This document shows, piece after piece, positions 654 to 41,315 of a DNA stretch of 64,000 nt. The notes under the pieces were generated by a model. That model was not told the origin of the DNA and ran no database searches. It worked only from the letters and a program-made list of their open reading frames with translations. The position numbers and the translations under genes are program-made. Within the stretch, counting starts at the first letter, position 1. Each line of letters opens with the position of its first letter. Origin of the DNA: an uncultured Candidatus Saccharibacteria bacterium (lineage in GTDB: Bacteria; Patescibacteriota; Saccharimonadia; Saccharimonadales; Saccharimonadaceae); assembly GCA_964404945.1 (NCBI GenBank), contig CAYOLY010000002.1:602-64601 (forward strand), read 5' to 3'.

Positions 654-1400
654 ATGAAGCCAAGCAAGCGGAAGATTAGCCGATATCGAGGACGACGCAT
701 AGGGGTCGTGGCTGCAGTAGTCGCGGCTTTGATTGGTATAGTTGTTGCGAATCCGAACAGCTATGAGCCGATTGTAGAGCCAGCGGAGGCGGTTAGCAGT
801 AACGATGTTATCGAAAAATCTGAAGGGCAACTATTAGCAACGGAAATTTTGGAAAAGCTAGAGATCAAGGGGCGTGCGCCAAAGACCGGGTATAGCCGTG
901 AGGAGTTTTATAAGACTTGGCCAAAAGTGGATGGCTGTAGTTTGCGTCAGCGAATTATTAAGCGCGAGTTGGGCGATACGGCGAAGTTGGATGCGGATCA
1001 GTGCACGGTGCTATCAGGTGAGTTTGTGGAACCATATACGGGGCAGCATCTGATTTTTTACGAAAAGTCGGATTTTGCGACGGGTATTCAGATTGATCAC
1101 GTCGTGGCGTTGTCGGATGCTTGGCAAAAGGGAGCGCAGTATAAAACGGCCGAGGAACGCTATGCTTTGGCGACCGACCCTTTGAACCTGCTAGCAGTAG
1201 ATTCTAGCGCTAATCAGCAGAAGTCGGATGGTGATGCGGCAACTTGGCTACCGAAAAATAAAGCATTTCGGTGTCAGTACGTGGCGCGGCAGGTTTCGGT
1301 GAAATATAAATATGGTCTTTGGGTGACGCAGGCAGAACATGATGCGATCGCGAAGGTGTTGGAGGCGTGTCCAAATGAGTTGGCGGTTGGGGTGGAATAA
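654..1400 (+). CDS. Membrane-anchored/secreted HNH-type nuclease family protein (DUF1524-like)
   Basis: N-terminal hydrophobic segment; IQIDHVVALSDAW, NLLAVDSSANQQKSDGD, WLP...CQYVARQ; GAGGAG SD. Confidence 0.75.
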   Translation: MKPSKRKISRYRGRRIGVVAAVVAALIGIVVANPNSYEPIVEPAEAVSSNDVIEKSEGQLLATEILEKLEIKGRAPKTGYSREEFYKTWPKVDGCSLRQRIIKRELGDTAKLDADQCTVLSGEFVEPYTGQHLIFYEKSDFATGIQIDHVVALSDAWQKGAQYKTAEERYALATDPLNLLAVDSSANQQKSDGDAATWLPKNKAFRCQYVARQVSVKYKYGLWVTQAEHDAIAKVLEACPNELAVGVE

Positions 1401-1594: not shown

Positions 1595-1809
1595 TTCATC
1601 CTCTCATTGATTACTCATATGGCTAGACAACGGAGGGGGAAACCCCAGAAACGTCCCTGCCCGTTTTCTACTGCATACATAATACCGTCAGTCTCAGCAA
1701 TACTAACAGCGTTATAAATATCAGCCGAAGCTGTTATACTCCACCAACCAGTTCCGCTATTATAACGTGACAAGCCCTCCGTAATTGAGACATACCCGCT
1801 GCGGACGAA
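1595..1809 (-). other. Orphan variable C-terminal cassette A (FISUMP/CLec-like tip)
   Basis: Frame 1809-1615 reads FVRSGYVSITEGLSRYNSGTGWWSITASADIYNAVSIAETDGIMYAVENGQGRFWGFPLRCLAI*; both anchors present; upstream in-frame TAA at 1849-1851, no start. Confidence 0.85.
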
Positions 1810-1823
1810 GAAAAGGCTAGTGT

Positions 1824-2040
1824 CTCGTCCGCAGCGGATCGAGTAGTGTTATTGTTAAATGGGAAGGTGGCTATTTGCGCAGTGTGGCAGATTATGGATA
1901 TTTATGGAGTAGTTATCGCCGATTAATGTTTCGTTTTTCTACTGCAAACGAAAACCTTCGTCCAACATATAGCAATGGATTTGATCTTTGGGGGCATTCC
2001 CTCCGTTGTCTAGCCATATGAGTAATCAAGAGGAGGATAG
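1824..2040 (+). other. Orphan variable C-terminal cassette B
   Basis: Frame 1824-2021 reads LVRSGSSSVIVKWEGGYLRSVADYGYLWSSYRRLMFRFSTANENLRPTYSNGFDLWGHSLRCLAI*; in-frame TAG at 1818-1820 just upstream. Confidence 0.85.
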
Positions 2041-2094: not shown

Positions 2095-2844
2095 ATGGGC
2101 GATGTGGCAGAGGAGGAGAAGAAAGACGGCGCTTTGGTAGACAATAAGTCGTCAGCTGTGCCGGGTGAAAAGGCGGCGAGGGGCAGTTCTACGTTAGAAT
2201 TCAAGTCTGAAAATATCGGCAACTGGACTGCACATCAAGAAGGCTATTTTACCGAACAAAACCGTAAAGCTGCGGAGAAGCGCAAAAAGTCTGAACAAAT
2301 TCGCAAAAAAGTCAGGCCAATTGTGCTCGTGGTTGGTGGTTTGGTGGTGATTGGTCTAGCGGCTTGGGGAGTGATTGTGTTGGTCGCGTCGTCTACGAAC
2401 GAACTGCCACCGTTGCCAGATGATATTGCGCTAGGGGGTGAGGGTGCGCAAGAGGTGCAGGATCAGGCGCAAGATGTTTGGCAAGAGGCCTTGCAGGGCA
2501 CTGAACAAAATACGGGAGATGCTAGCAATGCGGAGCTCGGAGCGAAAGGTGTTGCGGCGGTGACGGAATATTTCGATAAACGCGCAGAGCAGGCTAGTGC
2601 AATGAGTGAAAAGATTGAGCTGACTTTGATTGAAATGGCGTTGTTCATTAGCAAAGGCAAGCCGGAAGCCGCAATCAAATCGTCGAAGCGGGTCTCATCG
2701 GACGAGATGAACGACGTACAGAAGAGCCAATATTATGGCATGTTGATGAATATTTATTATAGTTTGGGCGATATGGTGAAAGGTGATGAATATAGTAATT
2801 TACTCGAGCAAGTTAATAACGAAGATGCCGAGGTGGAGGGATAA
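2095..2844 (+). CDS. Hypothetical single-pass membrane protein
   Basis: One TM segment (IVLVVGGLVVIGLAAWGVIVLV) after a basic stretch; ATG 2095 is 6 nt after TGTTATAAT; stop overlaps next start. Confidence 0.7.
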   Translation: MGDVAEEEKKDGALVDNKSSAVPGEKAARGSSTLEFKSENIGNWTAHQEGYFTEQNRKAAEKRKKSEQIRKKVRPIVLVVGGLVVIGLAAWGVIVLVASSTNELPPLPDDIALGGEGAQEVQDQAQDVWQEALQGTEQNTGDASNAELGAKGVAAVTEYFDKRAEQASAMSEKIELTLIEMALFISKGKPEAAIKSSKRVSSDEMNDVQKSQYYGMLMNIYYSLGDMVKGDEYSNLLEQVNNEDAEVEG

Positions 2845-5800
2845 TGCGTAGGTGGTTAGTAATAAAGGCCCGAATCGTGGTGGCGATCCTTGGGGTAGCA
2901 ATGATGTTGTTGGCGGGCACACTAGTGAATCGGACGGAAGTGTCGGCGGATGCGGCGAGCTGCTTGTCGAGTAGTGGGGCGAGCAACGTCGAGTCGGTGC
3001 AGAATGCTTGTAATCTTTGCACTAAGTCGAGTACGTTGGCGCGCGGAACGCTTTGGATTAACGGGTCAGACAGTGAGCGAAATTCCAACACGATCGATGT
3101 TAAATATACGGAGGAAAATTCCGTTATAGATATTTATCTCTGGGGTCAGGTCTATTCTTGTGGGCAGGCTACGACGGCGAGTAATACCGCACATCATATC
3201 TGGATTGGTCGTGAGGGGCAGATGATTGGTAGCGGGTCGAATCTTCAGGGTGCGGTGGATTATATTAAAGAGAATAACGCCCAGAAATCACTCTATCGCG
3301 GCACTGGCACAGGAAAGACGCAGTCTTGGTACTCGCCGCTAGGTCAGCATGTTAGTATGAAGCTAGATGTGCAGAAGTTCAAGACCGATTCTGGCACACA
3401 ACACACGACCGAACAAGATCCGACTTATGGCACGGTCGAGGTCTACCGGGCAAAAGTTTCGATTAACCGGTGTTTCAAAAAATTAACGGGAGGGTATGTG
3501 AACCAGACTGGCTCACGCAGTGGGACTTGTTACGGTGACGACAGTGAGATTGTATTGAGAATTTTGCCGGTAGGTGATGACCAGTTTATCTCAAAATCGA
3601 AGGTGACGGCGGATTCTGGTTCGAGTGAGTCGGCGAGCTGGGGTGTGAACGCGGCAGATCTCGAAGTCCAAGCCGATGAGGATGGCAAGGCGACGGTAGC
3701 CTTTGCGCATCAGTTACGTTATGCGTCTGGTATGCCGAACGGTACTTACGAAGAGGCCTATACCCAGTGGACAATTAAGACTGACTTGCTTGCAAGAACC
3801 GAGTCAGAGACTTGGCGGACGCCGGGCGGTGTGACGAAAGAGACCGATTGGTTCACGACGGGCAATAAAGAGCTGAAAGTTGAGGTGCAGCTAGGTGAGG
3901 GCGAGACGGAGAAGCGGGTTTGCTCGACAATTTCTTACCAGACTAAGACCGTAAAATGGGACACTTCGAGCCCGCATAAAATGTTACCGGTGAACGATAC
4001 GGGTAATACGCAGGCTTGTGCGGTAGTGCGAAAAACTCCGAAGCAGAATACGGGCGGAATCGTCTTCTGGCCACAGTCTTCGGTCGAATCGGTGGCGGAA
4101 CGCGACGTCGTGAATCATAAGGAATGGACGACTGACGATAAAAACAAGGCGGATGGGGATATTGTCTCGATGCAACTTAGCACCGACTATAACCAAGCGA
4201 AGGCAAACTTCGAACATAAGATCCACGTCGATGTTGACTTAGGAGAGTATACCGTCGGCGCGAATGATACCTGGGATGCGACCAACATGTGCACAGAATA
4301 CTGGGTAAACTATGCCGATGGCACGACTAGCCCAAAGGAGAAGTTTTGCACTCCAAAGCTTAGCTCCGGTTCAAGTACTACCTCGGGCGAGAAGAGCGTG
4401 CCTGGTAGGCAAGGGTTCACAATTAATGTAGAAGGTAAGGTTATCGAAAAGCTAAATTACAAGCCTAAGACGATATCCGTAAAACGCGAGGAGCTGAAGA
4501 CGAATGCTTGTTATAACGCGGCCGGGGAGCAAACGGCCAGCACTGGATGCTCGTGGAATCCTGCACGTTACAAATACTATGCAGAGGAAAACTCTGGATC
4601 AGGGGAAGGTTATTCCTCAGCCGAAATTGAGTACGTTTCTCCAAATGAACCGGATGATAGTAATGGCCCGTCGTCGGGTAGCGGGGTGAGTGGCCAGCCG
4701 ATGTACGCCGGCGAAACTACGAGCATGACATGGTGGGCGCGGGCTAAGGCGATTGATACACGACGGATTGCTGAAATTCGGTCGGTGGCTTTTGAGGTGC
4801 TCTGGGATTTTAACTATAATGAAGTAGCGCTCTCAGGCGACCTAGATAAGAACCTGAAATATTCGGATAATCCGGGACGGAGCCAGTATGATCCGTGCGG
4901 CTATTGGCGGAATAGACTAGATCTCAGAGCGAACATGACGGACTGCACCTTGGTGAATCCCGGGGATAGCACGCTAAATAATGTGTTCGGCAATGGTTAT
5001 GTCGGCGAGCATTTGATGAATAGTATCTCTCAACTGTTGGTAGTGCCGGACCATGTCGGTGATAAATATTGCAACAGCTTTGCTTATAAGTGGCAGTACT
5101 ACTGGGGCGTGAAGCGCAAAAGCAGCGGAGATCAATGGGTTTGGACGCCGGAAAACCAGACCTACTGGACCCACTACGATGCGGCTTGCCGCACGATTGC
5201 TAAAAAGCCGTCCGTAGCGGTTTGGAATGGTGGCGTATTTACGAATGGTGGGATTATGACTTCATTAGCGCCACGCTATAACAATACGGCGATTGGTACG
5301 TTAGCAACGACGGCGAACGCGGCATACGGTTCGTGGACGGAGCATCTCGGAGTGGCGAATGGTCTAATCCAGAACTTCGGTACGGGTGGATCGTTGGCAT
5401 TCGGGTCGGGCGCCTTGTCGGTGAGCAATAGCTTTAATTCCCCGCTGACGATCCGAAATGACTTGCCGATTCTAGGTATGGCGAGTATCAATAATAATTC
5501 AGCTCTAGTTTCGCGGCTGGGTGATTATTTAGGCAACCTAGAGAGTGTTGAGCGGTTCGATGGCGATACATTAGAGATCAGTAGTAATTATACGATGCCG
5601 GCGACTTCATATAGCGATATCTATCAGTTACCGCAACAGGTTATCTATGCACCGAAAGCGACGAAGATTAATATTAGTGGTAACGTGACGCTGATCGACG
5701 CCTGGATCATCGCCCCGAATGCGACGATTGACACTTGCGCGGATTTCAGCGAGGACAGTACGGAAACGCGGCCGGCGATGGCACATGCTTGCGATCAGCC

Positions 5801-6053
5801 GCTTCGGATTAATGGCCCGGTGATCGCGAGCGCGTTAGAATTGAACCGCACCGGTGGGGCTGATATTACGAACGTGGGTGATAGATATACTGACGTTTTT
5901 GGCCCCATTTACTCTAACGCATGGGAGAAATACACCCCGGCTGAGGTTTTCAATCTAAGTGCAGCTACGTATCTCTGGGCTTATGCCCAGGCTGGGCGTT
6001 ACGGTTCTAGCTATACCGAATCCTACACGCGCGAGTTGCCGCCGAGGTATTAG
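2844..6053 (+). CDS. Large secreted Cys/Thr/Ser-rich surface protein (1069 aa), putative adhesin or pilus-associated
   Basis: Signal-peptide-like N-terminus, beta-rich composition, spaced Cys pairs, C-terminal ...ELPPRY. Function is inferred only. Confidence 0.65.
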   Translation: MRRWLVIKARIVVAILGVAMMLLAGTLVNRTEVSADAASCLSSSGASNVESVQNACNLCTKSSTLARGTLWINGSDSERNSNTIDVKYTEENSVIDIYLWGQVYSCGQATTASNTAHHIWIGREGQMIGSGSNLQGAVDYIKENNAQKSLYRGTGTGKTQSWYSPLGQHVSMKLDVQKFKTDSGTQHTTEQDPTYGTVEVYRAKVSINRCFKKLTGGYVNQTGSRSGTCYGDDSEIVLRILPVGDDQFISKSKVTADSGSSESASWGVNAADLEVQADEDGKATVAFAHQLRYASGMPNGTYEEAYTQWTIKTDLLARTESETWRTPGGVTKETDWFTTGNKELKVEVQLGEGETEKRVCSTISYQTKTVKWDTSSPHKMLPVNDTGNTQACAVVRKTPKQNTGGIVFWPQSSVESVAERDVVNHKEWTTDDKNKADGDIVSMQLSTDYNQAKANFEHKIHVDVDLGEYTVGANDTWDATNMCTEYWVNYADGTTSPKEKFCTPKLSSGSSTTSGEKSVPGRQGFTINVEGKVIEKLNYKPKTISVKREELKTNACYNAAGEQTASTGCSWNPARYKYYAEENSGSGEGYSSAEIEYVSPNEPDDSNGPSSGSGVSGQPMYAGETTSMTWWARAKAIDTRRIAEIRSVAFEVLWDFNYNEVALSGDLDKNLKYSDNPGRSQYDPCGYWRNRLDLRANMTDCTLVNPGDSTLNNVFGNGYVGEHLMNSISQLLVVPDHVGDKYCNSFAYKWQYYWGVKRKSSGDQWVWTPENQTYWTHYDAACRTIAKKPSVAVWNGGVFTNGGIMTSLAPRYNNTAIGTLATTANAAYGSWTEHLGVANGLIQNFGTGGSLAFGSGALSVSNSFNSPLTIRNDLPILGMASINNNSALVSRLGDYLGNLESVERFDGDTLEISSNYTMPATSYSDIYQLPQQVIYAPKATKINISGNVTLIDAWIIAPNATIDTCADFSEDSTETRPAMAHACDQPLRINGPVIASALELNRTGGADITNVGDRYTDVFGPIYSNAWEKYTPAEVFNLSAATYLWAYAQAGRYGSSYTESYTRELPPRY

Positions 6054-6085: not shown

Positions 6086-7528
6086 TTACTCGGGTTGGAC
6101 AAAACTGTTTAATAAATTCTCACGGAGCTCGTCGAGGTTTAGGCTTTCGGGCCGCTCGGTTTGAACATAACTAAGATGCGGTTTTGATTTGAGTGCATCG
6201 CGCGTGGCGGCTGGGTAGAGTTTGGGGTCTGCGCCGAGATCGCGCAGTGCGATAAGATGGTGGTCGATTTCAAAAGAATACTTGATGGGCTGTCCGGCCT
6301 CGATGCCTTGGAAGATAGTGCCATGTGGTAACCAATCAACCATCGACATAGTTCCGACGGCACCAATCAAAACGAAATCACGCGTCGAGAGAATGTTTTC
6401 GAGTTCATTAGCCCAAAAGATATTAAGTTTTAGGGCGTCATGGTTTTCAAGAACTTGGTGAATTGGTTCTAGATATTTTTCGATAAGCTCTGTTTCGGAG
6501 CTGGCTGGGAGTAGGATAGTGAGTTCGCTCGGTAAATCTTTGGCGGATAAATCCCGGTAGAGATATTTAGCGTCAGGAAAAGCAGTTTCGACCGAAGCGT
6601 CTTTGACTTTGCCGAGATAAGCAGCGGAAGGCGCCTGGGCATCTTGCTTTGAAGTGCTAATTGAATAGACTTCGGCAGTATCTTTGCATTCAAATAAAGC
6701 GGTTTCGGGGTCGGTAGGGCTTTGGAAAACAAGGTGATAGGCGCCACTACAAATTGCGAAGGCACGCTTGCCGAGGTCTTCTGGGATGCCTTCGATTCGG
6801 GCGGCAAATTCTGCGTCGACTAGTTCTTCAATTGCAGTTTCGTCAATTTCGACGAGATTGGTTTTTTGGAATATATAAATACCGGTAAAGATAGCCTCAG
6901 CGGTAGCAGAGAGGATTAGTCCGACGAGGATTAGGTGCATGATGAGACTGGGTTTTTGGTGTGAAGAATATTGTTTTGAGATGAGCAACGCTCCAGTCCA
7001 GAAAATAAAGATACCCATGAGCGTCGTGATGGCGAGCTGGTTGGGTTGGAAAGTGATAAGGAAAGCCGCTACCCAGCCAATACTGAACAGGTGTGCGGCG
7101 CCAGCGACCAAAACGGCAGTGAGACGAGCAGTGCGCGGGCGGCTTTTCCAGGCTAAGACAAGCGCGGAGACATTTACGAGCGAAAGTAACCCTGAGCTTA
7201 GTAACATGACTTTAAGCACAGTGGGATAGTAATCCGTAGTGACCCATTCATAATTTTTAGTAATCATGAGCAGGATCATCTGCATTGGTCCGATCAGGAA
7301 GGCTAAGATTGATGCCATTACAAAACTGAAAGTGCTCAAGGTCAAAGGCCAGTGGCTTTCGGTACGGGCTTCAGCCTGCTCGTTGATAAGCTCGCTCGGC
7401 CAGAGTAACTCCGAAGAGGTTTTTTCTTCCTCCGAGGTATTAACTGTGTAATTCGGGCGGTGGTCAAGCGACGGCCAGAGTAAATCGTCGGTATTCAGCG
7501 AATTTTTAGTCTTTTTCGGAGCCTCCAT
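6086..7528 (-). CDS. Hypothetical multi-pass membrane protein with soluble C-terminal domain
   Basis: 480-aa ORF with about 5 hydrophobic segments; TGCTATAAT 8 nt upstream of ATG. Confidence 0.7.
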   Translation of the reverse strand: MEAPKKTKNSLNTDDLLWPSLDHRPNYTVNTSEEEKTSSELLWPSELINEQAEARTESHWPLTLSTFSFVMASILAFLIGPMQMILLMITKNYEWVTTDYYPTVLKVMLLSSGLLSLVNVSALVLAWKSRPRTARLTAVLVAGAAHLFSIGWVAAFLITFQPNQLAITTLMGIFIFWTGALLISKQYSSHQKPSLIMHLILVGLILSATAEAIFTGIYIFQKTNLVEIDETAIEELVDAEFAARIEGIPEDLGKRAFAICSGAYHLVFQSPTDPETALFECKDTAEVYSISTSKQDAQAPSAAYLGKVKDASVETAFPDAKYLYRDLSAKDLPSELTILLPASSETELIEKYLEPIHQVLENHDALKLNIFWANELENILSTRDFVLIGAVGTMSMVDWLPHGTIFQGIEAGQPIKYSFEIDHHLIALRDLGADPKLYPAATRDALKSKPHLSYVQTERPESLNLDELRENLLNSFVQPE

Positions 7529-8778: not shown

Positions 8779-10020
8779 TTAGGGCTTGTTAATCTGGGTG
8801 TCGTTGCCGTCAGACAGGGCGTCAGCGAGCTCCTGCAGAGCTTCCATGATGCCGGGGTTACAGTCGGCGGCGTCCAGATCTTCGCGGGTCATGATCTGGC
8901 TCAGCATCACGCTCAGATGATTGCAAACACGGACATTGACCAGGATGTGCTGGAAGAAATCCTTCTGCTTCCAGGTCGGCATGTTCTTGTAGTAGGCCTC
9001 GATCTGCCAGGGATGCTCCTTGTTATCGGCGTTGTAGATTGCACCGGGAAGCGGGCAGCCGTTGAGGTTTTGATAGCCAGCAATGTCATCAACGGTGACA
9101 AGCTCCGTCAGCTTTTTGCTGTCACTGGTGCGGCAGGCCCGGATCAGCTCGGCCCAGGTACGGATCTCGCAGGGGCGAAAGTGTAGCAAATCCAGGTGCT
9201 TTGCCCGGGTAGCCAACCACTGCAGCTGAGCGATCAGCAGGTGCCCAGCAGACTTGATGTAGCCCTGCTTGACTTGACTGTCGATCATGGGGACGATTTT
9301 GGCAGGTGAGGCAGCTTCGCGTAGCTCGTCAAAAGTGCTGATGATTACATTCCGATAGTCATAGAGCCGGCCGACAGTATCGGTCTCGGCGTCATAGTGG
9401 ATTTCCGTCAGGTAACGGTTATTAATCTCGGGATCGTTAATCAAAATGCTTTGACGAATCAGCTCCTCCATGATGTAGCGATCGGAGCTGCTGATGCGGT
9501 AGGACGGCTTGCCGTTCAAACTGAGGTTGAAATAGCGGCAGTAGTCGTATTCCCACCGTTTCGACTCATCCAAGGCCAGATACTCGGAGCGGGTGATTTC
9601 CTGCTCGGTATGGAGGTGTCTGATCTTGCGATCGGGCCAGCCGTCGTGGGTCTTGCCGGGCAGAGGACGGAACATTTTGTCTTCCAAGGGATCGCCGTTT
9701 TCGTCGATAGCCTGCCCCAGCATATTGATTTTGGGGAGGTCGAAGATAAAGGCCAGGAAGCTCATCTTGTCCACGTCGTAGAGCTTCAGCATCTGCTGGG
9801 CGTCCTTGCGCCGGCGTGTCCGCTGCTGCTCATCGCTCTGAACCAGGAGCGCGATGATGTGCTGCTGGTTGCTGGTAGAAAGGATGTTGGGGTACTCGCT
9901 GGCCGGAGCCAGCTGCAGGGCAGTTATCATCGACCGGGCGCCCTCGAAAAAGGCGCGGGCCTCGCTGGACTTGGGGTTCTGCAGGTAGTAGCTGAGGTTG
10001 GTACGGATGTTGGTTCCCAT
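8779..10020 (-). CDS. Hypothetical protein (413 aa), GC-rich, foreign-looking
   Basis: Long ORF; AAAGGTGG SD before ATG 10020; spot check 9781-9840 gives 40/60 G+C. No motif recognised. Confidence 0.75.
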   Translation of the reverse strand: MGTNIRTNLSYYLQNPKSSEARAFFEGARSMITALQLAPASEYPNILSTSNQQHIIALLVQSDEQQRTRRRKDAQQMLKLYDVDKMSFLAFIFDLPKINMLGQAIDENGDPLEDKMFRPLPGKTHDGWPDRKIRHLHTEQEITRSEYLALDESKRWEYDYCRYFNLSLNGKPSYRISSSDRYIMEELIRQSILINDPEINNRYLTEIHYDAETDTVGRLYDYRNVIISTFDELREAASPAKIVPMIDSQVKQGYIKSAGHLLIAQLQWLATRAKHLDLLHFRPCEIRTWAELIRACRTSDSKKLTELVTVDDIAGYQNLNGCPLPGAIYNADNKEHPWQIEAYYKNMPTWKQKDFFQHILVNVRVCNHLSVMLSQIMTREDLDAADCNPGIMEALQELADALSDGNDTQINKP

Positions 10021-10310
10021 AGGAATCCACCTTTCTGCGCTGTTCGCGCTCAAAAATATTACGCAACAGAGTTATTGCGCAGACCGGCCATTTTGGAGTG
10101 TGCCCTCTTTTGGCTAGTGGATTTCAAAATAAACGATCTGCACAATAATCTATTGTGAATATTGAATGCGAGATAAATCTATTAGCTGTAAAAGAACGTT
10201 AATGGTGCATACGGGGTATGACCATTAAAGTGTTTGGAGTACTAACGTAAGGCAGTACTCCTTTTCTAGGGACTAGAAAAACAAAATTGCTATTTTAGGC
10301 CCATATCTCC

Positions 10311-10339
10311 ATTGTAGCACAGACTGGCTATTTTGTCAA
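10311..10339 (-). promoter_or_regulatory. Sigma70-type promoter
   Basis: TTGACA-17 bp-TACAAT with TGTG extension, facing the 8779-10020 gene. Confidence 0.75.
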
Positions 10340-10356
10340 TAGTTAAATCATAAGAA

Positions 10357-10557
10357 ATAAGGAAAAATAGTATATCTACTCAAAACCAGTAATAAGGACT
10401 TAGGCTAGCTCTCAATCGAAGGTGGAACTTTTCTCGTAGACTCGCTTACGCTCCCTAAATCGAAAAGCTTCCAGCCTCAGAAGTCAAGCTTCACGATTTC
10501 TAGCTAGCCTAAGTCCTTATTACTCTTCTCAAGCTAGCTTTATTATATTTTCCTTAT
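10357..10557. repeat. MITE-like structured repeat, copy 2 (201 bp)
   Basis: Same ATAAGGAAAA/TTTTCCTTAT ends; internal perfect 23-bp IR (10388-10410 / 10502-10524); core shared with copy 1. Confidence 0.8.
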
Positions 10558-10640
10558 CCCTTTGCTGGTTGTAGGCGTAAGTTTGCTAGCAATATATGCT
10601 TTGCAAAGTTCTAGCATATTGTTCGCCAAACTCCCTATCC

Positions 10641-10863
10641 CTTCATCCTCCCTATGATTACTCTATATGGCTAGACAACGGAGAGAGAAGCCCCAACCAC
10701 GGTTAGCAAAAGAAACGGAATTACCATAATCGACTGTCATACCGTTGCTTCTTAAGGTGAAGGAATTTGCACTATTAATTGCGCTACTAGACCAATAATG
10801 CAAATTCGTACTAGCCTGTTCTACAATGTAGTTATGCCTATTCCCCCTCCCGCTGCGGACGAA
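10641..10863 (-). other. Orphan variable C-terminal cassette C
   Basis: Frame 10863-10663 reads FVRSGRGNRHNYIVEQASTNLHYWSSSAINSANSFTLRSNGMTVDYGNSVSFANRGWGFSLRCLAI*; preceded by SPLF, then in-frame TAA at 10879-10881. Confidence 0.85.
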
Positions 10864-10886
10864 GAAAAGGGGGCTTGCTTAATCCT

Positions 10887-11104
10887 CTTCATCCTTCCTA
10901 TGATTACTCTATGGCTAGACAACGGAGGGGACGACCCCACATGCGTTGGTACCCTGCACTGGTTAGAAAAGTGCCGTTATCTCCTAAGAACTCAATTACA
11001 TAAGCAAAGTTTGCGTTTGAAGCTACCATACTTCTGAGTGTACCTGTTAATGAGGCGTCAAATAATACACCTTGATTTGGTCGAGCATACCCGCTGCGGA
11101 CGAA
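10887..11104 (-). other. Orphan variable C-terminal cassette D
   Basis: Frame 11104-10904 reads FVRSGYARPNQGVLFDASLTGTLRSMVASNANFAYVIEFLGDNGTFLTSAGYQRMWGRPLRCLAIE*; upstream in-frame TAG at 11147-11149, no start. Confidence 0.85.
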
Positions 11105-11105
11105 A

Positions 11106-11121
11106 ACCGAACAACCTGTGA
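11106..11121 (+). repeat. 16-bp motif ACCGAACAACCTGTGA, copy 1
   Basis: Exact reverse complement of 37996-38011; also one arm of the hairpin 11111-11138. Confidence 0.7.
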
Positions 11122-11223
11122 CTAGGATCGCAGGTTGTGAAAAGCGCTAGCGGGAGTAGAAATATGCAGAAAAACGCCAAAACCTGTGCCCCTGATTACA
11201 GCCTGTGCGGCTTTACTAGACTC

Positions 11224-11444
11224 TTCGTCCGCGGCGGATTTGTTAATGTATGGCCGGCTTACGGGCGGGGGAACTCTAGTGTAGTTGGTCAATATTTACG
11301 AGTATGGTCAGATTATAGTGATGGGCGACCATTAATTTTACGCGTTGATGGGGGGATTAGTCTAGAACCATCCAGAGCCGATTCAACACATTTTGGCTTC
11401 TCCCTCCGTTGTCTAGCCATATGAGTAATCAAGGGAGGATGGAA
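11224..11444 (+). other. Orphan variable C-terminal cassette E
   Basis: Frame 11224-11424 reads FVRGGFVNVWPAYGRGNSSVVGQYLRVWSDYSDGRPLILRVDGGISLEPSRADSTHFGFSLRCLAI*; both anchors present. Confidence 0.85.
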
Positions 11445-11451
11445 GTAAAAC

Positions 11452-12867
11452 CTATTTCGAAATGGTAAAACCAGAGAATGAGTTCGCGAGGCCGTGCAAC
11501 TGAGCAAATTCGGCAAAAAGGCGAGCAGTGGCTTGGCTGGGGTCGGTGTCGACGATCGTAACAGCGGAGTCGTTTCGAGGGAGGAAGCTGGCGGCGGAGG
11601 CATAAGCTTCACGCAGGTGTTCGGTATAACGTGGGTCGGCAGTGGCAAAATCTTGCAAAAAGGCTTCTAGAAATTCCTCATCGGTGCGATTCTTGAGAAT
11701 CAGGTTGCTGGTCGGGTATTCTGCACCAAAGCAAAATTCGTAAACATGGTGACGCTGCTCCAGCTTGGAATACTTAGTTTTAGAATCGTCCAGTGCCAAG
11801 ATCAGGCTGACGATTGCACGGAGATTCCAACGCTGGTCAGGACGACTTACGAGTAGCCAAATTAGCGCAGCAGTAAGAACTTTTGGATTAAGGTTTGGCG
11901 CAGTAATAATATTTGAATTCGCGAAACTTTGTGGTAGGAGCGTGATACCCTGGAATTTGATCTCGTCGGCTTTTTCGGAAGCAATGAGAAAAGCTTGTTC
12001 GGGAAAATTTTTCGCCATAAGCCCGAGTCGCGAGAGCTCGGCCGAACGACGATCGCCAAAAAGGTCGATCGGTGGTTGGAGCTTGACTAAAGCATCGATT
12101 TCGCCGACGAATGTGCGTAAGGTGCGGGCACGAAAAGGATGATAGTAAAAGGCCTGGCCGCCAAGTTTGCGGACCGGTAGGATGTCTGAGCGGCGACTGT
12201 CGCCGATATGTAGGTTAGTCTGCAACTTAAAGTCGGTCCCGAAGAGTTGGCCGTCGACGATTTTGCGATAGAGACTACCATCAGATTTATGAGCTTGGCA
12301 GTTTACGCCGCTGACACCATCGTTGAAAATACCGATTTTAAAGAAATCTAAAAAGTATTGAATTTGATCGCGACTATACGGTTCGTCAGTGATGAAATAG
12401 ACTTTGAGTTCAGGCAAAGCCTTTTTAAGCTCGGTGATGGCATGAAGGAGAGCGGTGTTAGGCCTAAGGATTTCGGCGGTGGCTTGAAGCTGGTCACGCA
12501 GCATGGTCTGGTGGATGAGAGTGCGTTTACTGTCGTCAAGCTCAAGATTGTAGCGTTCGGCGATAAAATCGATCATCTGCGAGAAGTTGGTTTCGTAGTC
12601 GACTACAAAATCATTACTGCCTTTTGCGCTACGGAGATAGTTTAGCTCGTGCCGAGTGAATTCATGCCACTCAATTAGTTCGAGCGGGGAAAGTTTAAGG
12701 CCGAGGAGATCAGGGAGGCTTTCGTGCCATTTCTTTGCGACCTTAATCGTGTGCTGTTGCTCTGGCCAATAGCGGTAAAGCAAAACCGTATCAAAAACAT
12801 CCAAAGTTAGGCTTTGGAGGTGACTTTCTCGTATTCTTTTGGCAAGTTGATTATAAATCTGCGGCAT
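11452..12867 (-). CDS. HAD-superfamily hydrolase-like protein
   Basis: Motif I LTLDVFDTVL, KSDGSLY, motif IV LHIGDSRRSD. Confidence 0.7.
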   Translation of the reverse strand: MPQIYNQLAKRIRESHLQSLTLDVFDTVLLYRYWPEQQHTIKVAKKWHESLPDLLGLKLSPLELIEWHEFTRHELNYLRSAKGSNDFVVDYETNFSQMIDFIAERYNLELDDSKRTLIHQTMLRDQLQATAEILRPNTALLHAITELKKALPELKVYFITDEPYSRDQIQYFLDFFKIGIFNDGVSGVNCQAHKSDGSLYRKIVDGQLFGTDFKLQTNLHIGDSRRSDILPVRKLGGQAFYYHPFRARTLRTFVGEIDALVKLQPPIDLFGDRRSAELSRLGLMAKNFPEQAFLIASEKADEIKFQGITLLPQSFANSNIITAPNLNPKVLTAALIWLLVSRPDQRWNLRAIVSLILALDDSKTKYSKLEQRHHVYEFCFGAEYPTSNLILKNRTDEEFLEAFLQDFATADPRYTEHLREAYASAASFLPRNDSAVTIVDTDPSQATARLFAEFAQLHGLANSFSGFTISK

Positions 12868-14642: not shown

Positions 14643-15227
14643 CTAACGCTGTTTGAGTGCCAGCTTAATCCGCTCTTCGACTGAGAGAGTAGGATCAACC
14701 TCGGCGAGGGCAGCGGTCGCTTCTTTGAGCGGAAAACCTAGAGCGATGAGCGCATCAAGAGCCTCGTCGTCAGGGGCCGTATTACTAGTTAGACTAAACT
14801 TTGTCTCGGTTGCGCCGTAATGGCTAGGTTGTCCGACTTTATCGCGAAGGTCAACGATGACACGTTCGGCAGATTTTTTGCCAACGCCTGAAGCTTTGGC
14901 GATAAAGGCGGCGTCAGTGTTAGCAATCGCGTTGCGTACGTCTTCGGCCGAGCCGAGGCTAAGGATCGCCATGGCGGCTTTCGGGCCGACGCCATTAACC
15001 GAAATTAGCATTTCAAAGAGTTTTTTCGCGGCAAGGCTGAGAAAGCCATACAGCTCCTCGGCGTTCTCGCGCACAGAGTGATAAGTGTAGAATTTTACTT
15101 CATCGTGGAGGTTAGTTTGTTCGGCATCGGGCGCCGAGATTGTCAACTCGTAGCCGACACCATGTACATCGACTATAATCGAGTTCATAAATTTTTCGGT
15201 AACGGTGCCAGCGAGGTGAGCGATCAT
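14643..15227 (-). CDS. ruvA: Holliday junction branch migration protein RuvA
   Basis: DVHGVGYE, LYGF, LISVNGVGPKAA, GVGKKSAERVIVDL, ALIALGF. Confidence 0.95.
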   Translation of the reverse strand: MIAHLAGTVTEKFMNSIIVDVHGVGYELTISAPDAEQTNLHDEVKFYTYHSVRENAEELYGFLSLAAKKLFEMLISVNGVGPKAAMAILSLGSAEDVRNAIANTDAAFIAKASGVGKKSAERVIVDLRDKVGQPSHYGATETKFSLTSNTAPDDEALDALIALGFPLKEATAALAEVDPTLSVEERIKLALKQR

Positions 15228-16124: not shown

Positions 16125-16235
16125 AACTACTCTTACGACTTTTCTCGAGGCGCGTCGCCACATCCCGCCGTTGCGGGTGTGGCGCGCTACTCCTCGTCGT
16201 AACTCCGGATCCTCGAGAAAAGTATAAGAGTAGTT
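16125..16235. repeat. 111-bp nested palindromic REP/MITE-like element
   Basis: AACTACTCTTA/TAAGAGTAGTT outer IR, CTTTCTCGAGG/CCTCGAGAAAAG middle IR, CGCCACATCCCGC/GCGGGTGTGGCG inner stem. Confidence 0.65.
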
Positions 16236-17592
16236 ACCGTTCATTGACATACTCTATCAAGGTGGTTCTTAAGTCTCTGACTGGGATGACGAAGCTGTCG
16301 TGGACGGTGGCGGGGGCGATAGCGTGTGAAAAGCCGAGTTTCTTCGCTTCGGAAATGCGTTGATCGGGGCGGAAAGCGGAGCGAATTTCACCACCAAGCC
16401 CGACTTCGCCAAACACCACGAAATCTTCGGCCAGCTTACGTCCAGCTACAGCCGAAGCGATCGCAAGACAGATTGCGAGATCCGCCGCCGAATCCTGCAC
16501 CCGGAGACCCCCAACGACATTAATGAAGACGTCTTTATCACTAAGCTTGAGCTTCGTGCGGCGCTCGACCACGGCAATCAGTAAATTTAGCCGGTTAATA
16601 TCAAAACCAGAGCTAGTACGCTTTGGATAGCCAAAGTTAGTCGGAGTAACGAGCGCCTGAATTTCAACTAAGATCGGGCGGGTGCCTTCAAGGGTGGCCA
16701 GAATAATTGAGCCGTCGGTATTTTGACGTTCGGCGAGCAAGGCAGCGGAGGGGTTTTCGACTTCGGCGAGGCCCTGCTGGTTCATTTCGAAAATCGCAGC
16801 CTCGGTCGTGGAGCCAAAACGATTTTTAACGGCGCGAACGATCTTAAACCCACCGTAGCGGTCACCTTCAAATTGCAAGACGACGTCGACCAAGTGTTCA
16901 AGAACTTTCGGGCCGGCTAAAGTTCCCTCTTTCGTAACATGCCCCACGATGATTACGGCGGTGCCGGAAAGTTTGGCGGCGCGGATGATAATGTTGCCAC
17001 AGTTTGTGACCTGAGAAATCCCACCAGGGGCGGAAGCGATCTCGGCTAGGGTTAAAGTCTGAATTGAGTCAACAATCACGACGTCAAATTCGCCGCCTTC
17101 GATGGTTTTAGCAACGTCGTTGGCACTGGTTGAACTAGCGAATTTGAGATTGGGCGATTCAGCACCGAGGCGGATGGCCCGAAGTTTAACTTGCCCGGCT
17201 GACTCTTCGCCTGAAACATAGAGCACCGGACGTTCTTTAGCCAGCTCAGCGCAAATTTGCATAAGTAAAGTGGATTTGCCAATGCCAGGCTGGCCGGCGA
17301 GCAATGAAACTGACCCCTGCAAGATTCCTCCGCCCAGTACAGCATCGAGGTCTTTAAAACCCGTATGCAAACGCTCGCGGTCGTCTGAGGCCTCGAGATC
17401 ATTAATCGAGACGTATTCCAAGGTTTTTCCGGAGGTTTGGGCTCGACCGACGGCGGATTTTTCGTCACGCGAGTTATCGTCGAATTGCTGGATAAGCGAA
17501 CTCCAGGCGCCGCATTTTGTACAGCGACCAGTCCAGTTTTTATAAATCGCGCCACATTGCTGGCAAGTAAATTGGACATGAGATTTGGCCAT
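16234..17592 (-). CDS. radA: DNA repair protein RadA/Sms
   Basis: C4 zinc finger CQQC..CTKC, Walker A GQPGIGKST, KNRFG, Lon-like C-terminus. Confidence 0.95.
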   Translation of the reverse strand: MAKSHVQFTCQQCGAIYKNWTGRCTKCGAWSSLIQQFDDNSRDEKSAVGRAQTSGKTLEYVSINDLEASDDRERLHTGFKDLDAVLGGGILQGSVSLLAGQPGIGKSTLLMQICAELAKERPVLYVSGEESAGQVKLRAIRLGAESPNLKFASSTSANDVAKTIEGGEFDVVIVDSIQTLTLAEIASAPGGISQVTNCGNIIIRAAKLSGTAVIIVGHVTKEGTLAGPKVLEHLVDVVLQFEGDRYGGFKIVRAVKNRFGSTTEAAIFEMNQQGLAEVENPSAALLAERQNTDGSIILATLEGTRPILVEIQALVTPTNFGYPKRTSSGFDINRLNLLIAVVERRTKLKLSDKDVFINVVGGLRVQDSAADLAICLAIASAVAGRKLAEDFVVFGEVGLGGEIRSAFRPDQRISEAKKLGFSHAIAPATVHDSFVIPVRDLRTTLIEYVNER

Positions 17593-37765: not shown

Positions 37766-37973
37766 CTTCATCCTCCCTTGATTACTCTATGGCTAGACAA
37801 CGGAGGGGTTGAGCCTCGTATCTTACGGTGGTTCGGCTAGTCCATATTTGGCTTGAATCGGCTTTGGAATATAAATAATAGGAGCTAGCTACGCGTGAGG
37901 AAATGACATAAGCACCATCGCTGATATATTCAAGTGCTGGCCTATAATAACTAGGTCTTCCGCTGCGGACGAA
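37766..37973 (-). other. Orphan variable C-terminal cassette F
   Basis: Frame 37973-37782 reads FVRSGRPSYYRPALEYISDGAYVISSRVASSYYLYSKADSSQIWTSRTTVRYEAQPLRCLAIE*; both anchors present; no start upstream. Confidence 0.85.
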
Positions 37974-41000: not shown

Positions 41001-41315
41001 AAGCGTGCGTTCCATGGTTTCGGCGTAATTTTTATAACGCTCAAGCAGGCTAGCACCGAAAGCATGATAAGTATGGATGTTCACATCTAGTGCGTCCTTG
41101 CCAATCATAGTCCGCAAGCGGTCACGCATATTTTCAGCTCCAGCCTCGGTGAAGGTTAGACAGAGTACGTTACTGGCGTTAGCATCGGTCGCTTCCAGGA
41201 TGCGCGCCACTTTGGCCGAGAGCAGCTGAGTTTTACCTGTGCCCGGGCCGGCTAAAACTAAGAGTGGGCCTTCAAGATAATCGACAGCTTTCTGCTGTTC
41301 AGGATTAAGCGGCAT
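38013..41315 (-). CDS. UvrD/PcrA-like SF1 helicase with C-terminal PD-(D/E)XK nuclease
   Basis: AGPGTGKT, LLDEFQDTN, VGDDDQAIF, TAHKSKGLEF, FVALTRAK, then GKIDHIE..DYKTG..QLGFY. Confidence 0.9.
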   Translation of the reverse strand: MPLNPEQQKAVDYLEGPLLVLAGPGTGKTQLLSAKVARILEATDANASNVLCLTFTEAGAENMRDRLRTMIGKDALDVNIHTYHAFGASLLERYKNYAETMERTLDAPVDETTQYKIIKEIQRHLPATDILKDAAIPELIETIGNAKAARLSASDLRKIAEQNIADSAQISEEASPILLAYVPRSKFPVAVEGTYRPILEVLARYISPEPIAGNIERTANLMARELDQIIKELEVEEKPKLKPLSAWKDKWFEATTDDGVKAYRLADTIANKKLLSLANIMECYSQKLQESGLFDFNDMIEQAIHFLKTDDGFRMSLQEQFQYVLLDEFQDTNASQFELIKLITDYEKPVVMAVGDDDQAIFEFQGANASNLMDFQKHYGAEIITLTKNYRSTSEILGLSRQIAEQIENSFAKKYEIDKSLQAMRPAEPCAKVSRHEFPGSEAEYYWLAGQIESLIKDGEDPNEIAIVAPKHKNIAPILPYLKERGIDVTYEKRDNILVDARIQQLIKLARFVQELAKSHQPSHQLLEILSFDFWQLPAETIISAVSDVSHAPRDTLEYLQGRSELKKVANLLAELVKRSFSAPLELWLDFLLGNQPMGELKMPIIGFYESNLSTAELLEFYENLASLRQAISAHIQAEFTRRNDFVPKLPELVATVNDFEEAETAINRISIYRDSSNSIQVMTAHKSKGLEFKHVFLTSIDDASWGKSSGNNNRFTLPKNLLQIRHTGITDDEKLRLFFVALTRAKQCLVLSNAVNNASGSTLARLRYLSENSRDEEIGLSPYLPEGSREIQLHLNELDDFGKIATLRLGWIAAYQKLQPDVMELLRERMKTYRLSATDLTDFIDLIYGGPQKVYQRKVLRAPNEPANFSLCYGTLLHAVFEKITNQGYTDQQALEYFQSEAPKAALDDLERLALAEKGLNSLKTALSEFGELVRRPGAKAEVNLSSEKLHLGDIPVTGKIDHIEINHEAKTIEVFDYKTGNFHKEKWDRHPTLYKYRLQLGFYKLLLNLSPTYQKYRVTAGHILFVTPDAEGKVYDKVYEFNDTDEAELKRLAEVIYRQLTSLEFVSNPELFLPADKGNTLKDVRAFVDKLLTNTEDA

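Follow-up and report, generated by a model that had tools for sequence, protein, structure and literature searches.

The 201-nt segments C, D and E, located in the 64,000-nt stretch of DNA analysed here (the window), probably serve as silent donors in a system of programmed variation, in which whole cassettes would be exchanged into one adhesin gene. The host is a rodent-gut member of Candidatus Saccharibacteria. This reading is drawn from sequence comparisons, in which we observed an archive of such cassettes, a coding constraint on their frames, a single expression gene with alternative cassettes, identity between a donor and an expressed copy, and turnover of whole cassettes. The cassettes and associated elements of the window are given below, with cassette length running from the start of the 5′ anchor to the end of the stop codon.

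1445–1584, hairpin element downstream of cassette A
1615..1809, minus strand, cassette A, 195 nt, paired head-to-head with B, 14-nt spacer between the two
1824..2021, plus strand, cassette B, 198 nt
10388..10524, minus strand, hairpin element with a long stem, directly downstream of the 3′ anchor of C
10641..10687, minus strand, 3′ anchor block of C, ...CTCCGTTGTCTAGCCATA TA GAGTAATCATAGGGAGGATGAAGG, extending beyond the stop codon
10663..10863, minus strand, cassette C, 201 nt including the stop codon, FVRSGRGNRHNY...GWGFSLRCLAI and stop, 5′ anchor at 10850–10863
10904..11104, minus strand, cassette D, 201 nt, FVRSGYARPNQG...MWGRPLRCLAIE and stop, 5′ anchor at 11091–11104, 3′ block at approximately 10884–10931
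11105..11223, no strand, D/E spacer, 119 nt, separating the 5′ anchors of these two head-to-head cassettes
11224..11424, plus strand, cassette E, 201 nt, FVRGGFVNVWPAYG...HFGFSLRCLAI and stop, 5′ anchor at 11224–11237 with 1 mismatch, 3′ block at approximately 11400–11446
37782..37973, minus strand, cassette F, 192 nt, standing singly

C and D are arranged in tandem on the minus strand, with approximately 20 nt from the conserved 3′ block of D to the 5′ anchor of C, and E is inverted relative to both and stands head-to-head with D. The first-pass annotation, which had described three 201-nt frames with unrelated middles in this mixed orientation, was accurate in coordinates and strands. The window contains three cassette clusters, up to 36 kb apart, and no alignment of the cassette middles is possible. 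C, D and E share a 5′ anchor of 14 nt, TTCGTCCGCAGCGG, reading FVRSG, and a 3′ anchor of approximately 45 nt, which reads LRCLAI and continues through the stop codon and beyond. The anchor 18-mer CTCCGTTGTCTAGCCATA is present in six copies in the window, as compared to 0.06 expected, and none of 100 shuffles reached six. If up to two mismatches are allowed, TTCGTCCGCAGCGG is also found six times, against an expectation of 0.64.

Together with two related mouse-gut Saccharibacteria MAGs, the window provided at least 155 distinct cassettes. The anchor 18-mer matched at least 84 stretches and, among the matches listed, all were in two Saccharibacteria MAGs. Across the 155 cassettes the 5′ block TCGTCCGCAGCGG is 98–100% invariant, and upstream of it the identity drops to background within about 7 nt. 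The 3′ block of approximately 45 nt is common to the cassettes and the expression genes described below, and about 25 nt of it lie past the stop codon. The anchors are identical between genomes that are only about 80% identical in syntenic regions. Ragged remnants of the expression-site flank are seen on both sides of cassettes. Upstream of C the remnant is CCCCTTTTC (SPLF) and before A it is SLF; both had been pointed out in the first-pass annotation and are real, and they are decaying traces of the ...NPLFFVRSG of the expression gene.

The cassettes are under a clear coding constraint. The anchor-to-anchor distance is a multiple of three in all 155 unique cassettes, with lengths ranging from 162 to 231 nt, and frame 0 is open in 154 of them, whereas each of the other five frames is closed in 152–155. 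The suggestion that the cassette frames are no more open than matched intergenic sequence is contradicted by these numbers. They also bear on the idea that the cassettes are debris, either decayed fragments of FISUMP genes or MITE-like repeats with the 3′ anchors as terminal inverted repeats. The copies are indeed intergenic and numerous, and the head-to-head pairs resemble an element with terminal inverted repeats of 40 nt. However, the interiors differ among all cassettes, whereas MITE copies share their interior, and the anchors have stayed invariant despite a genome divergence of 20%. Moreover, one cassette was found expressed in a full-length gene. Variable, coding-competent interiors, and the lack of target-site duplications on inspection by eye, led us to reject the MITE version, and we regard debris of either kind as highly improbable.

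Cassettes are dispersed across many contigs, on both strands and between genes, and 48 of the 57 neighbouring cassettes are head-to-head. In 12 pairs, the two 5′ anchors stand 9 nt apart, with the stereotyped sequence GAAAAGYRY between them, and so form an inverted 14-9-14 arrangement. In sequencing runs X1 and X5, the anchor-bin depth is approximately 90–100 times the flank depth, a rough guide to copy number since overlapping unitigs inflate the sum. The archive would comprise on the order of 100 cassettes per genome. The hairpin after C belongs to a repeat family that also follows the expression gene in contig L077, as well as 12 or more further cassettes; this element is probably the original 3′ flank or terminator of the expression site, which some cassettes have taken with them. 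No Rfam family matched in the window at the gathering threshold, and none matched at E≤5 in 10300–11500.

The open frames, some of which have an in-frame ATG, GTG or TTG upstream, could suggest that each cassette is an independent small gene for a peptide of about 65 residues. We attach next to no probability to this view. The cassettes have no conserved start codon or ribosome-binding site, and the 9-nt gap between the 5′ anchors of the 12 pairs leaves no room for a promoter or leader. No strong promoter facing C, D or E was found, nor any in the 119-nt D/E spacer, and the only strong promoter near the three cassettes is directed away from them. In addition, the cassette peptides match the C-terminal half of one domain. 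The peptides of six isolated window cassettes gave no match in Pfam.

A candidate recipient is provided by the full-length gene. Among the anchor loci listed, there is one ORF of approximately 700 residues ending at an anchor per MAG (in L067, and in L077, where it ends with the contig), and all other anchor-ending ORFs are orphans of 63–176 codons. The ORF in L067 has 706 codons and encodes 703 residues from the first methionine, including a signal peptide, and that in L077 is its ortholog. The full-length gene was found in the two related MAGs and in two further assemblies, and is located downstream of infB wherever the context covers it. One of its products, P0001 on contig L085, shows 92% identity overall. 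The three proteins from L067, L077 and L085 are near-identical through ...NPLFFVRSG and unrelated afterwards, so that the switch falls exactly at the 5′ anchor. Contigs L067, L085 and L086 all break within about 30 nt past the 3′ anchor. The 64-kb window contains no expression gene of its own; protein P0002, on L086, may be the candidate expression gene of the window's organism.

The encoded protein is predicted to be secreted or surface-located. Apart from a signal peptide, it has a pilin-like beta-sandwich and, at the C-terminus, a putative FISUMP lectin-like domain. The exchangeable segment corresponds to the last 55–70 residues (about 65 codons) of the FISUMP-like domain and is a five-strand beta unit. 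Among the aligned homologous C-terminal domains, 25 of 26 matched PF09603 (best E 4e-10). The rodent-clade protein itself, represented by L067, had no Pfam match and scored 23.9 bits against TIGR02145 (E 5.8e-5), below the cutoff of 41.65. Its best structure matches in BFVD were phage proteins annotated with a FISUMP domain (probability 0.95, E 0.06). The C-terminal domain returned nothing in a sequence-profile search of PDB and nothing significant with Foldseek against PDB, and the full-length model matched pilin-like folds only, through its N-terminal domain. Because the PDB searches were empty, the link to the CLec fold comes from family matches and the literature rather than from a solved structure. 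Surface exposure and a binding function are predicted for the protein from its sequence and model.

A candidate donor was identified for one of the expressed cassettes. The cassette of P0001 corresponds to a silent head-to-head cassette in a related genome (L030:224-419), with 93% nucleotide identity, and the homology begins at the 5′ anchor and continues through the 3′ anchor. The 13 differences consist of four C>T, three T>C, three A>G, two G>A and one T>A. The adenine signature of diversity-generating retroelements (DGRs) was looked for in this donor/expressed pair and is absent, the differences being mixed transitions that are not adenine-specific. For the cassettes expressed in L067 and L077, there was no donor among the partial cassette set compared; in run X25, the cassette of L067 was found in the context of a silent pair.

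Silent cassettes are also replaced as whole units. At orthologous silent loci of the two MAGs, where the flanks are 91–98% identical, the same cassette is present at six loci (96–99% identity) and an unrelated cassette at at least eight. Within one genome, a cassette was found at two loci with 100% identity and unrelated flanks. Cassette F shares 94.4% identity, with limits exactly at the two anchors, with a cassette that MAG CANEKB01 (L051) has at a non-syntenic locus; this MAG represents another species and is about 80% identical to the window's genome in syntenic regions. The identity between cassette copies is bimodal. At the site of C, D and E, the syntenic site in a relative holds a single cassette; the position of E is kept in L064 with unrelated content. 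A partner of F is present in L031 and absent from the window.

Differences of the same kind are seen between strains. Among rat-gut strains of the window's own species, runs X6, X8 and X19 lack the body of C, and X8 has another body in place of that of E; D was found in all rat-gut runs examined. In each mouse run, the unitig of the constant region ends at the 5′ anchor, after which two or more junction unitigs lead on into different cassettes, at fractional depth. The constant region is free of SNPs over its last 200 nt, as in X26 and X27; in X25, this stretch was at approximately 2.5 times the flank depth. This pattern is suggestive of within-sample cassette heterogeneity on one backbone, and co-existing strains or partial paralogs would fit it too. 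Joints in the Logan unitigs that are anchor-to-anchor cross-matches from other loci were excluded as evidence; an apparent "empty site" joint, 10407 to 10886, was rejected on this ground. Unitigs break at the anchors, which may act as breakpoints for strain-level mosaicism.

The first-pass annotation had proposed that cassettes are added one at a time as complete units, like an integron array without strand polarity. The relative with a single cassette, the partner of F in L031, and the loss of C and replacement of E in rat-gut strains bear out the first part: cassette order and content differ among relatives, rather than being identical in all of them, and discrete units are gained, lost or replaced singly at fixed intergenic sites. 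The comparison to an integron-like array of genes did not hold. The units are 3′ terminal pieces of one gene and have neither a start codon nor a ribosome-binding site or promoter; there is no integrase nearby, the units occur genome-wide and mostly head-to-head, and a separate full-length gene exists. An integron has an IntI tyrosine recombinase, an attI site and a Pc promoter beside the array, and complete promoterless ORFs, each followed by attC, in one orientation; here, the flanking genes have no recombinase domains and the units are start-less 3′ segments in mixed orientation. What integron arrays and the R64 shufflon have in common with the present system is that discrete units at conserved sites are gained, lost or replaced singly, and the shufflon likewise provides alternative C-terminal segments for one constant N-terminal part. 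In contrast to both, no integrase or Rci-type recombinase adjoins the cassettes, which have no common promoter or polarity. In shufflons and invertible tail-fibre genes, the segments directly adjoin the constant part and a recombinase is encoded next to them, whereas the cassettes are dispersed over the chromosome.

In the mechanism that we propose, the expressed segment would be bounded by the 5′ anchor of 13–14 nt (FVRSG) and the 3′ anchor of about 45 nt (LRCLAI, stop and about 25 nt). The silent archive would consist of promoterless, start-less copies of this segment, located between genes, mostly head-to-head and kept open in frame. Recombination at the anchors would replace the expressed segment by a faithful copy of a silent one, and silent cassettes would also be replaced by one another, the outcome being an altered binding face of the surface adhesin. 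The exchange route is probably gene conversion. We infer that it would be non-reciprocal and performed by the general recombination machinery, beginning in the long 3′ homology and resolving at the short 5′ anchor. The window encodes RuvA, RadA and an AddA-like helicase-nuclease, so that homologous-recombination machinery is present. The benefit may lie in a change of the partners recognized, or in evading antibodies or phages.

A dedicated site-specific recombinase or nuclease, recognizing the 13-nt 5′ core and perhaps the 3′ block and moving the units as in a shufflon or an integron, would account for the invariance of the core and its razor-sharp edges. The core contains the palindrome CCGCAGCGG, the predominant head-to-head pairs include the 12 inverted 14-9-14 sites, and where one cassette occurs at different loci, the homology of its copies stops exactly at the anchors. 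Furthermore, 13–14 nt of 5′ homology is short for recombination of the RecA type. However, none of the 14 window proteins scanned, among them the products of both genes flanking C, D and E, was a recombinase or integrase, and no recombinase or reverse transcriptase (RT) family was present in the genes annotated near the expression gene in L085. Since the cassettes occupy both strands across the chromosome, a reciprocal site-specific exchange with the expression site would lead to large inversions or deletions. The identical duplicates within one genome speak for copying and not for cut-and-paste, and the ragged remnants of the expression-site flank resemble products of homologous copying. On this evidence we judge such an enzyme unlikely.

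Gene conversion into one adhesin gene could also be part of something wider, which we consider possible but doubtful: a genome-wide shuffling in which silent loci, the expression gene and even different species would exchange copies of about 100 half-domain modules, replacing the DGR of relatives. Exchange between species is suggested by cassette F and its twin in CANEKB01. The route would then likely be DNA uptake with anchor-guided recombination, and a dedicated enzyme would possibly read the invariant 13-nt core. On this reading, a stored, heritable and horizontally shareable repertoire would take the place of on-the-fly mutagenesis.

The putative DGR in question was found in a distant relative (L089), which encodes a homologous protein with 33% identity near a DGR-type RT. 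The RT scored 38.4 bits on PF00078, above the cutoff, and has the motifs IGNLTSQ and YVDD; this RT family, with 6297 matches, is too large for assigning a member to the present clade. The segment of the L089 protein from TTCGTGCGCAGCGG (FVRSG) to TTCTCTCTCCGCT (FSLRC) aligns with an AAC-rich template-like repeat beside the RT, and the cassette boundaries coincide with the ends of this repeat and of its match. Target sites of DGRs have asymmetric anchors, long at the 3′ side and short and ragged at the 5′ side, and a downstream hairpin, which the present layout, with its hairpin after the expression gene, recalls. Proteins with Fib_succ_major/DUF1566 domains are a recognized class of DGR targets (PMC5758913).

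These similarities could be taken to mean that the cassettes are a derivative of a DGR, in which an RT copies transcripts of many cassettes, as multiple templates, into the expression site. However, searches with tblastn detected no RT in the window or in approximately 560 kb of loci (L001–L088, covering about one third of each of two MAGs). The range of cassette lengths, 162–231 nt, cannot come from adenine mutagenesis. The differences between donor and expressed cassette are not adenine-specific, and the mismatches of the L089 repeat are not restricted to adenine either (A 23/43, C 21/53, G 14/45, T 7/39). A DGR derivative is thus very unlikely, slightly less so than debris. DGRs acting on CLec2/DUF1566/Fib_succ_major domains (e.g. 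Legionella LdtA; PMC5758913) diversify the same C-terminal segment of the same domain, with the same output, a varied ligand-binding face on a surface protein, which in our case is predicted. The means differ: a DGR uses one template and adenine mutagenesis, whereas the system described here has about 100 pre-made cassettes of variable length that would be copied faithfully.

Further parallels to silent donor cassettes feeding one adhesin gene are found among systems of antigenic variation. A handful of animal pathogens are known to vary their surface in a programmed manner by means of silent cassettes. The msp2/msp3 "functional pseudogenes" of Anaplasma marginale and the vlhA pseudogenes of Mycoplasma synoviae serve antigenic variation by gene conversion. 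As in the present system, there is one full-length expression gene and many promoterless, truncated copies without the 5′ part, in either orientation, with a hypervariable core between conserved flanks, and the expressed variant copies a donor, as is probable here. In contrast to these systems, the part exchanged here would be the extreme C-terminus including the stop codon, with 3′ homology beyond the ORF and just 13–14 nt of homology at the 5′ side, and whole cassettes rather than segments would be exchanged. Silent loci turn over, head-to-head pairs dominate, and approximately 100 donors are found in a genome that is probably smaller than 1 Mb (an assumed size). Finally, the host is an epibiotic member of the CPR and not an animal pathogen.

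The pilE/pilS loci of Neisseria and the vlsE/vls loci of Borrelia (see also PMC9159922, PMC2632889) similarly combine silent partial cassettes with one expression site and have a structured DNA element near that site. Short repeats bound the variable region in vls (17 bp) and the Sma/Cla repeat lies 3′ of the pil loci, comparable to the anchors here. In Borrelia, a role has been ascribed to the branch-migration proteins RuvAB, and the window has a gene for RuvA. On the other hand, the vls cassettes lie together in a single contiguous array beside vlsE, whereas the present cassettes are dispersed, and both pil and vls use segmental mosaic conversion with stable donors, whereas the silent loci described here are recipients too.

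In JGI metagenomes, a scan with the expression-site junction pattern gave no matches; the anchor 18-mer gave two chance matches, both without the rest of the anchor; IMG/VR gave no matches. Among the collections searched, a system with exactly these anchors was thus seen only in rodent-gut Saccharibacteria. In full-text literature searches, variation of this kind was not found described for Saccharibacteria or other Patescibacteria, and a single paper speculates about it. The system would be the first cassette-based surface-variation system seen in these ultrasmall symbiotic bacteria. The archive is estimated to occupy 2–3% of a very small genome (assumed to be about 1 Mb), which argues for strong selection. 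The same segment is apparently a DGR target in relatives; if so, the C-terminal binding face would be varied in two ways in one lineage. Saccharibacteria live attached to other bacteria and rely on surface recognition. A switchable lectin-like tip could decide which bacterial partner is bound, or aid escape from gut IgA or phages.

The cassette system comprises an archive of coding-competent half-domain cassettes and one expression gene (product of about 700 aa) with alternative cassettes, the silent copies being promoterless versions of the gene's 3' end. A cassette is the variable segment between a 5' anchor (FVRSG) and a 3' anchor (LRCLAI, the stop codon and sequence beyond). The 18-mer representing the 3' anchor occurs six times in the window, as compared to 0.06 expected occurrences.

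Cassettes and associated features
1809 to 1615, minus strand: cassette A, 195 nt
1824 to 2021, plus strand: cassette B, 198 nt
10863 to 10663, minus strand: cassette C, 201 nt through the stop codon
11104 to 10904, minus strand: cassette D, 201 nt through the stop codon
11224 to 11424, plus strand: cassette E, 201 nt through the stop codon
37973 to 37782, minus strand: cassette F, 192 nt
1445–1584 and 10388–10524 in the window, 1140–1320 in locus L077 and at least 12 other loci: hairpin elements
10339 to 10311, minus strand: promoter of the 424-aa gene, TTGACA-17-TACAAT
38013–41333, minus strand: AddA-like UvrD helicase with a PD-(D/E)XK nuclease domain

Cassettes C, D and E share the start TTCGTCCGCAGCGG, encoding F-V-R-S-G (FVRGG in E, with one mismatch), the end CTCCGTTGTCTAGCCATA, encoding L-R-C-L-A-I followed by the stop, and a conserved GAGTAATCAnGGGAGGATGAAG directly past it. 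The middles show no alignment between the window copies, and none of the six cassettes is part of a long ORF because stop codons are located a few codons 5' of FVRSG. The first-pass annotation of C-D-E was right in all details checked, including positions, strands, lengths of 201 nt and unrelated middles. The cluster is made up of the head-to-head pair D/E, the additional tandem cassette C and a hairpin element; on one side it has the 424-aa gene's promoter, and on the other the 3' end of a 471-aa gene. The tight C-D tandem is an unusual arrangement. No promoters facing C, D or E were found beyond weak matches at chance level.

Near-consensus extended promoters (TTGACA, 17 nt, TG-TACAAT) were observed at 10311–10339 (minus) in the window and at approximately 2075–2110 and 3040–3075 in L064, a locus of the MAG CANEKB01. 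They form a conserved motif of about 35 nt located 5' of different genes, reading TTGTAGCACAG...TTTTGTCAATA on the other strand. The large ORFs beside the clusters, at 2844–6053 (plus, 1069 aa), 6086–7528 (minus, 480 aa), 8779–10053 (minus, 424 aa) and 11452–12867 (minus, 471 aa), gave no Pfam matches. The 1069-aa protein has a hydrophobic N-terminal segment resembling a signal and is possibly a further surface protein. A protein with a GmrSD_C (DUF1524-type) restriction-endonuclease domain, encoded at 654–1400 (plus), adjoins the hairpin element and cassette A.

Screening 185,579 species-representative genomes with the 18-mer gave at least 84 matching stretches. Among the matches listed, all were from two Candidatus Saccharibacteria MAGs, CANEKB01 and CARBES01, the latter from a mouse-gut catalogue; their syntenic genes are approximately 80% identical to those of the window, the own sequence of which is contained in rat-gut metagenomes. 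The window and the matches listed from the two MAGs together contain at least 155 distinct cassettes with both anchors. In all listed cassettes the anchor-to-anchor distance is a multiple of three, with bodies of 162 to 231 nt; the FVRSG frame is open in 154 of the 155, while the remaining five frames are closed in 152–155. The lengths and the open frame led us to reject decaying fragments; the cassettes are kept translation-ready. Within one genome, nearly all middles of the listed cassettes are mutually unrelated, and the encoded peptides have a high content of S, G, Y, A, N and T. The depth of the anchor bin relative to the flanks suggests a per-genome copy number in the order of 100, which is a rough estimate because overlapping unitigs inflate the sum.

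Long ORFs ending at the anchor were identified at two of the loci listed. In L067 (CARBES01), the ORF has 706 codons (703 aa from the first Met) and an N-terminal signal peptide, and L077 (CANEKB01) contains the same gene, cut off by the contig end. A protein search added P0001 (702 aa, 92% overall identity) and P0002 (686 aa, 68% identity), encoded at L085 and L086 in further assemblies. The gene is located downstream of infB, and the contigs of L067, L085 and L086 stop at most about 30 nt past the 3' anchor, as expected since this is a repeat with variable neighbours. L067, L077 and P0001 are near-identical through ...FNIALNPLFFVRSG and then enter three unrelated cassettes, each with the LRCLAIE end; P0002 has a fourth cassette. 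The expressed cassette of P0001 corresponds to a silent head-to-head cassette in CARBES01 (L030:224–419, 93% nucleotide identity), with homology from one base 5' of the 5' anchor through the 3' anchor. Copying appears to be faithful, since the 13 differences between the two are mixed transitions.

The locus comparison across relatives and strains that was proposed in the first-pass annotation revealed both absences and replacements of cassettes (L064, the F site and sequencing runs X6, X8 and X19). In L064, which is syntenic to C-D-E, a single cassette of unrelated content is located at the position of E, and another gene occupies the positions of C and D. The A/B site in CARBES01 holds a pair with different contents, and the F site a pair of which the partner is absent in the window, a clean one-cassette indel. 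At orthologous loci with flanks 91–98% identical, CANEKB01 and CARBES01 have the same cassette at six loci (96–99%) and an unrelated cassette at at least eight, with no intermediate cases. The same cassette was also found at non-orthologous loci between genomes, and twice within one genome (100% identical, unrelated flanks), and F matches a cassette elsewhere in CANEKB01, at an unrelated locus, with 94.4% identity that extends precisely from one anchor to the other. The exchange boundaries are located exactly at the anchors, and duplication is non-reciprocal.

Within the window's species, rat-gut runs X1 and X12 contained C-D-E, X6 and X19 contained D-E without the C body, and X8 contained D only, with a contig from D through about 220 other letters into the 3' anchor of E. 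Thus, whole cassettes are replaced, both at silent loci and, it appears, at the expression site. Several strains have the left flank of the window and a right flank that is about 4% different: at 9000–10262 one difference from the window in 1263 nt in the rat and mouse runs X5, X8 and X10, and at 11411–12500 45–49 differences in approximately 1,090 nt in X5 and X8, the density being comparable over the shorter pieces from X10. This places a strain-level breakpoint of recombination within the cassette cluster. The initial suggestion of integron-like units added one by one agrees with the gain, loss and replacement of whole cassettes, but not with the defining features of an integron; shufflon, MITE and DGR were likewise rejected on their defining features.

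In four mouse-gut runs, the constant-region unitig always stops at the 5' anchor, and at least two junction unitigs then enter different cassettes. Junction depths were 2.4x and 3x versus 7.4x for the constant region in X27, and 7.3x and 2x versus 5x in X26. The final 200 nt of the constant region showed no polymorphism in these runs, and in X25 the expressed cassette of CARBES01 was seen only in silent-pair context. The data suggest several expression-site variants per sample; at this low coverage, co-existing strains or partial paralogs are possible. Also in X25, depth over the last approximately 200 nt of the constant region (L067:7139–7345) is about 2.5 times that of the remaining gene, and another upstream context comes in 20 nt ahead of the 5' anchor. 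These observations suggest either additional partial copies in which the 5' homology is longer, or the co-existence of strains.

The 5' block TCGTCCGCAGCGG is 98–100% invariant with zero synonymous variation in the 155 listed copies, and identity to the expression site is down to background at most about 7 nt upstream of it. The 3' block is CCCTCCGTTGTCTAGCCATA, 0–2 nt and GAGTAATCAAgGGAGGA, and many copies extend it as ...TGAAGAAGGTTAAGCTAG, which is the expression-site flank. The silent cassettes therefore keep ragged pieces of the expression-site flanks on both sides, and the strict retention of the minimal anchors alone suggests that the DNA itself is under selection as a substrate for recombination. 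Of the neighbouring pairs among the cassettes listed, 48 of 57 are head-to-head, and in twelve pairs a stereotyped 9-nt spacer, GAAAAGYRY, separates the two 5' anchors. The short and perfectly invariant 5' core, and the 14-9-14 inverted sites formed by the pairs, keep a dedicated site-specific enzyme acting at this core in play.

A long-stem hairpin element of about 140 nt follows the expression gene in L077 and a minimum of 12 cassettes, A and C among them, nearly always directly past the 3' anchor and in a single orientation. It has terminal stems of 20–30 bp and a conserved branched interior, folds much better than shuffled sequences (z = -5 and -11) and shows compensatory changes in 14 of 22 predicted pairs in 13 copies. 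There was no match in Rfam; possible roles of the element are those of a terminator, of a structure that promotes recombination or of a small RNA.

As the preferred mechanism, we infer gene conversion via the general recombination machinery: the long 3' homology, which measures 45 nt or as much as about 200 nt if the hairpin is counted, would drive strand invasion, and resolution of the exchange would take place at the short 5' anchor. RuvA (14643–15227, minus) and RadA/Sms (16234–17592, minus) are encoded in the window together with the AddA-like protein, so recombination machinery is present; no specific tie to the cassettes was seen. The end of the AddA-like gene and the 5' anchor of F are 40 nt apart.

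A retroelement (DGR-type) route was considered because of L089 (GCA_964397215.1, contig CAYNHE010000004.1), a locus of a distant relative in which a DGR-type RT (at L089:14660–16359; 38.4 bits on PF00078; motifs IGNLTSQ and YVDD) lies 3 kb from the distant FISUMP homologue P0007. An AAC-rich template-like repeat adjoins this RT, and its ends coincide with the 5' and 3' anchors of the cassettes. However, in the present system no RT was found in the window or in the roughly 560 kb of MAG loci searched, cassette lengths vary and the adenine signature is absent. The mismatches between the L089 template and the 3' end of P0007 are not adenine-restricted, so the P0007 gene may be an old or non-primary target. 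P0039 and P0163 are both from 9966-nt contigs, which hints at another FISUMP-RT pairing.

Homologues of the expression protein are common across Saccharibacteria, many with PF09603 (Fib_succ_major, FISUMP domain). Among 26 aligned C-terminal domains, 25 matched PF09603 and four PF07603 (Lcl_C); the rodent-clade member was below the PF09603 threshold and scored 23.9 bits for TIGR02145 (cutoff 41.65). The Fib_succ_major/DUF1566 domain is a class of variable-protein domain in DGR surveys, with a diversified and exposed C-terminus (PMC5758913). The motifs FVRxG and GxSVRC are conserved family-wide, and the anchors therefore fall on structural landmarks. In the C-terminal domain model (pLDDT 72), the second half of the domain, with its five beta strands, is formed by the cassette. 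No matches to solved structures were found for this domain; the best-matching predicted viral structures were phage proteins annotated FISUMP (probability 0.95, E 0.06). In the AlphaFold model of full-length P0001 (pTM 0.70), residues 50–210, approximately, weakly resemble chaperone-usher and CFA/I-type pilin subunits, and Foldseek matched the N-terminal domain to pilins (probability 1.0, E about 1e-3, target-normalised TM-score 0.55). This N-terminal resemblance hints that the expression protein may be a fibre- or stalk-like adhesin.

The present system has the architecture of archive-based antigenic variation as known for Anaplasma msp2, Mycoplasma synoviae vlhA, Neisseria pilS and Borrelia vls. 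Literature searches turned up no account of such a system for Saccharibacteria or Patescibacteria; one paper raises antigenic variation merely as a possibility. In contrast to the four known systems, it occurs in a new host lineage, the part exchanged is the gene's C-terminal end with its stop codon, the 5' homology is very short, whole cassettes rather than mosaics are exchanged, head-to-head pairs are the standard unit, the silent loci turn over too, and the archive is large for a genome that is probably sub-megabase (size assumed).
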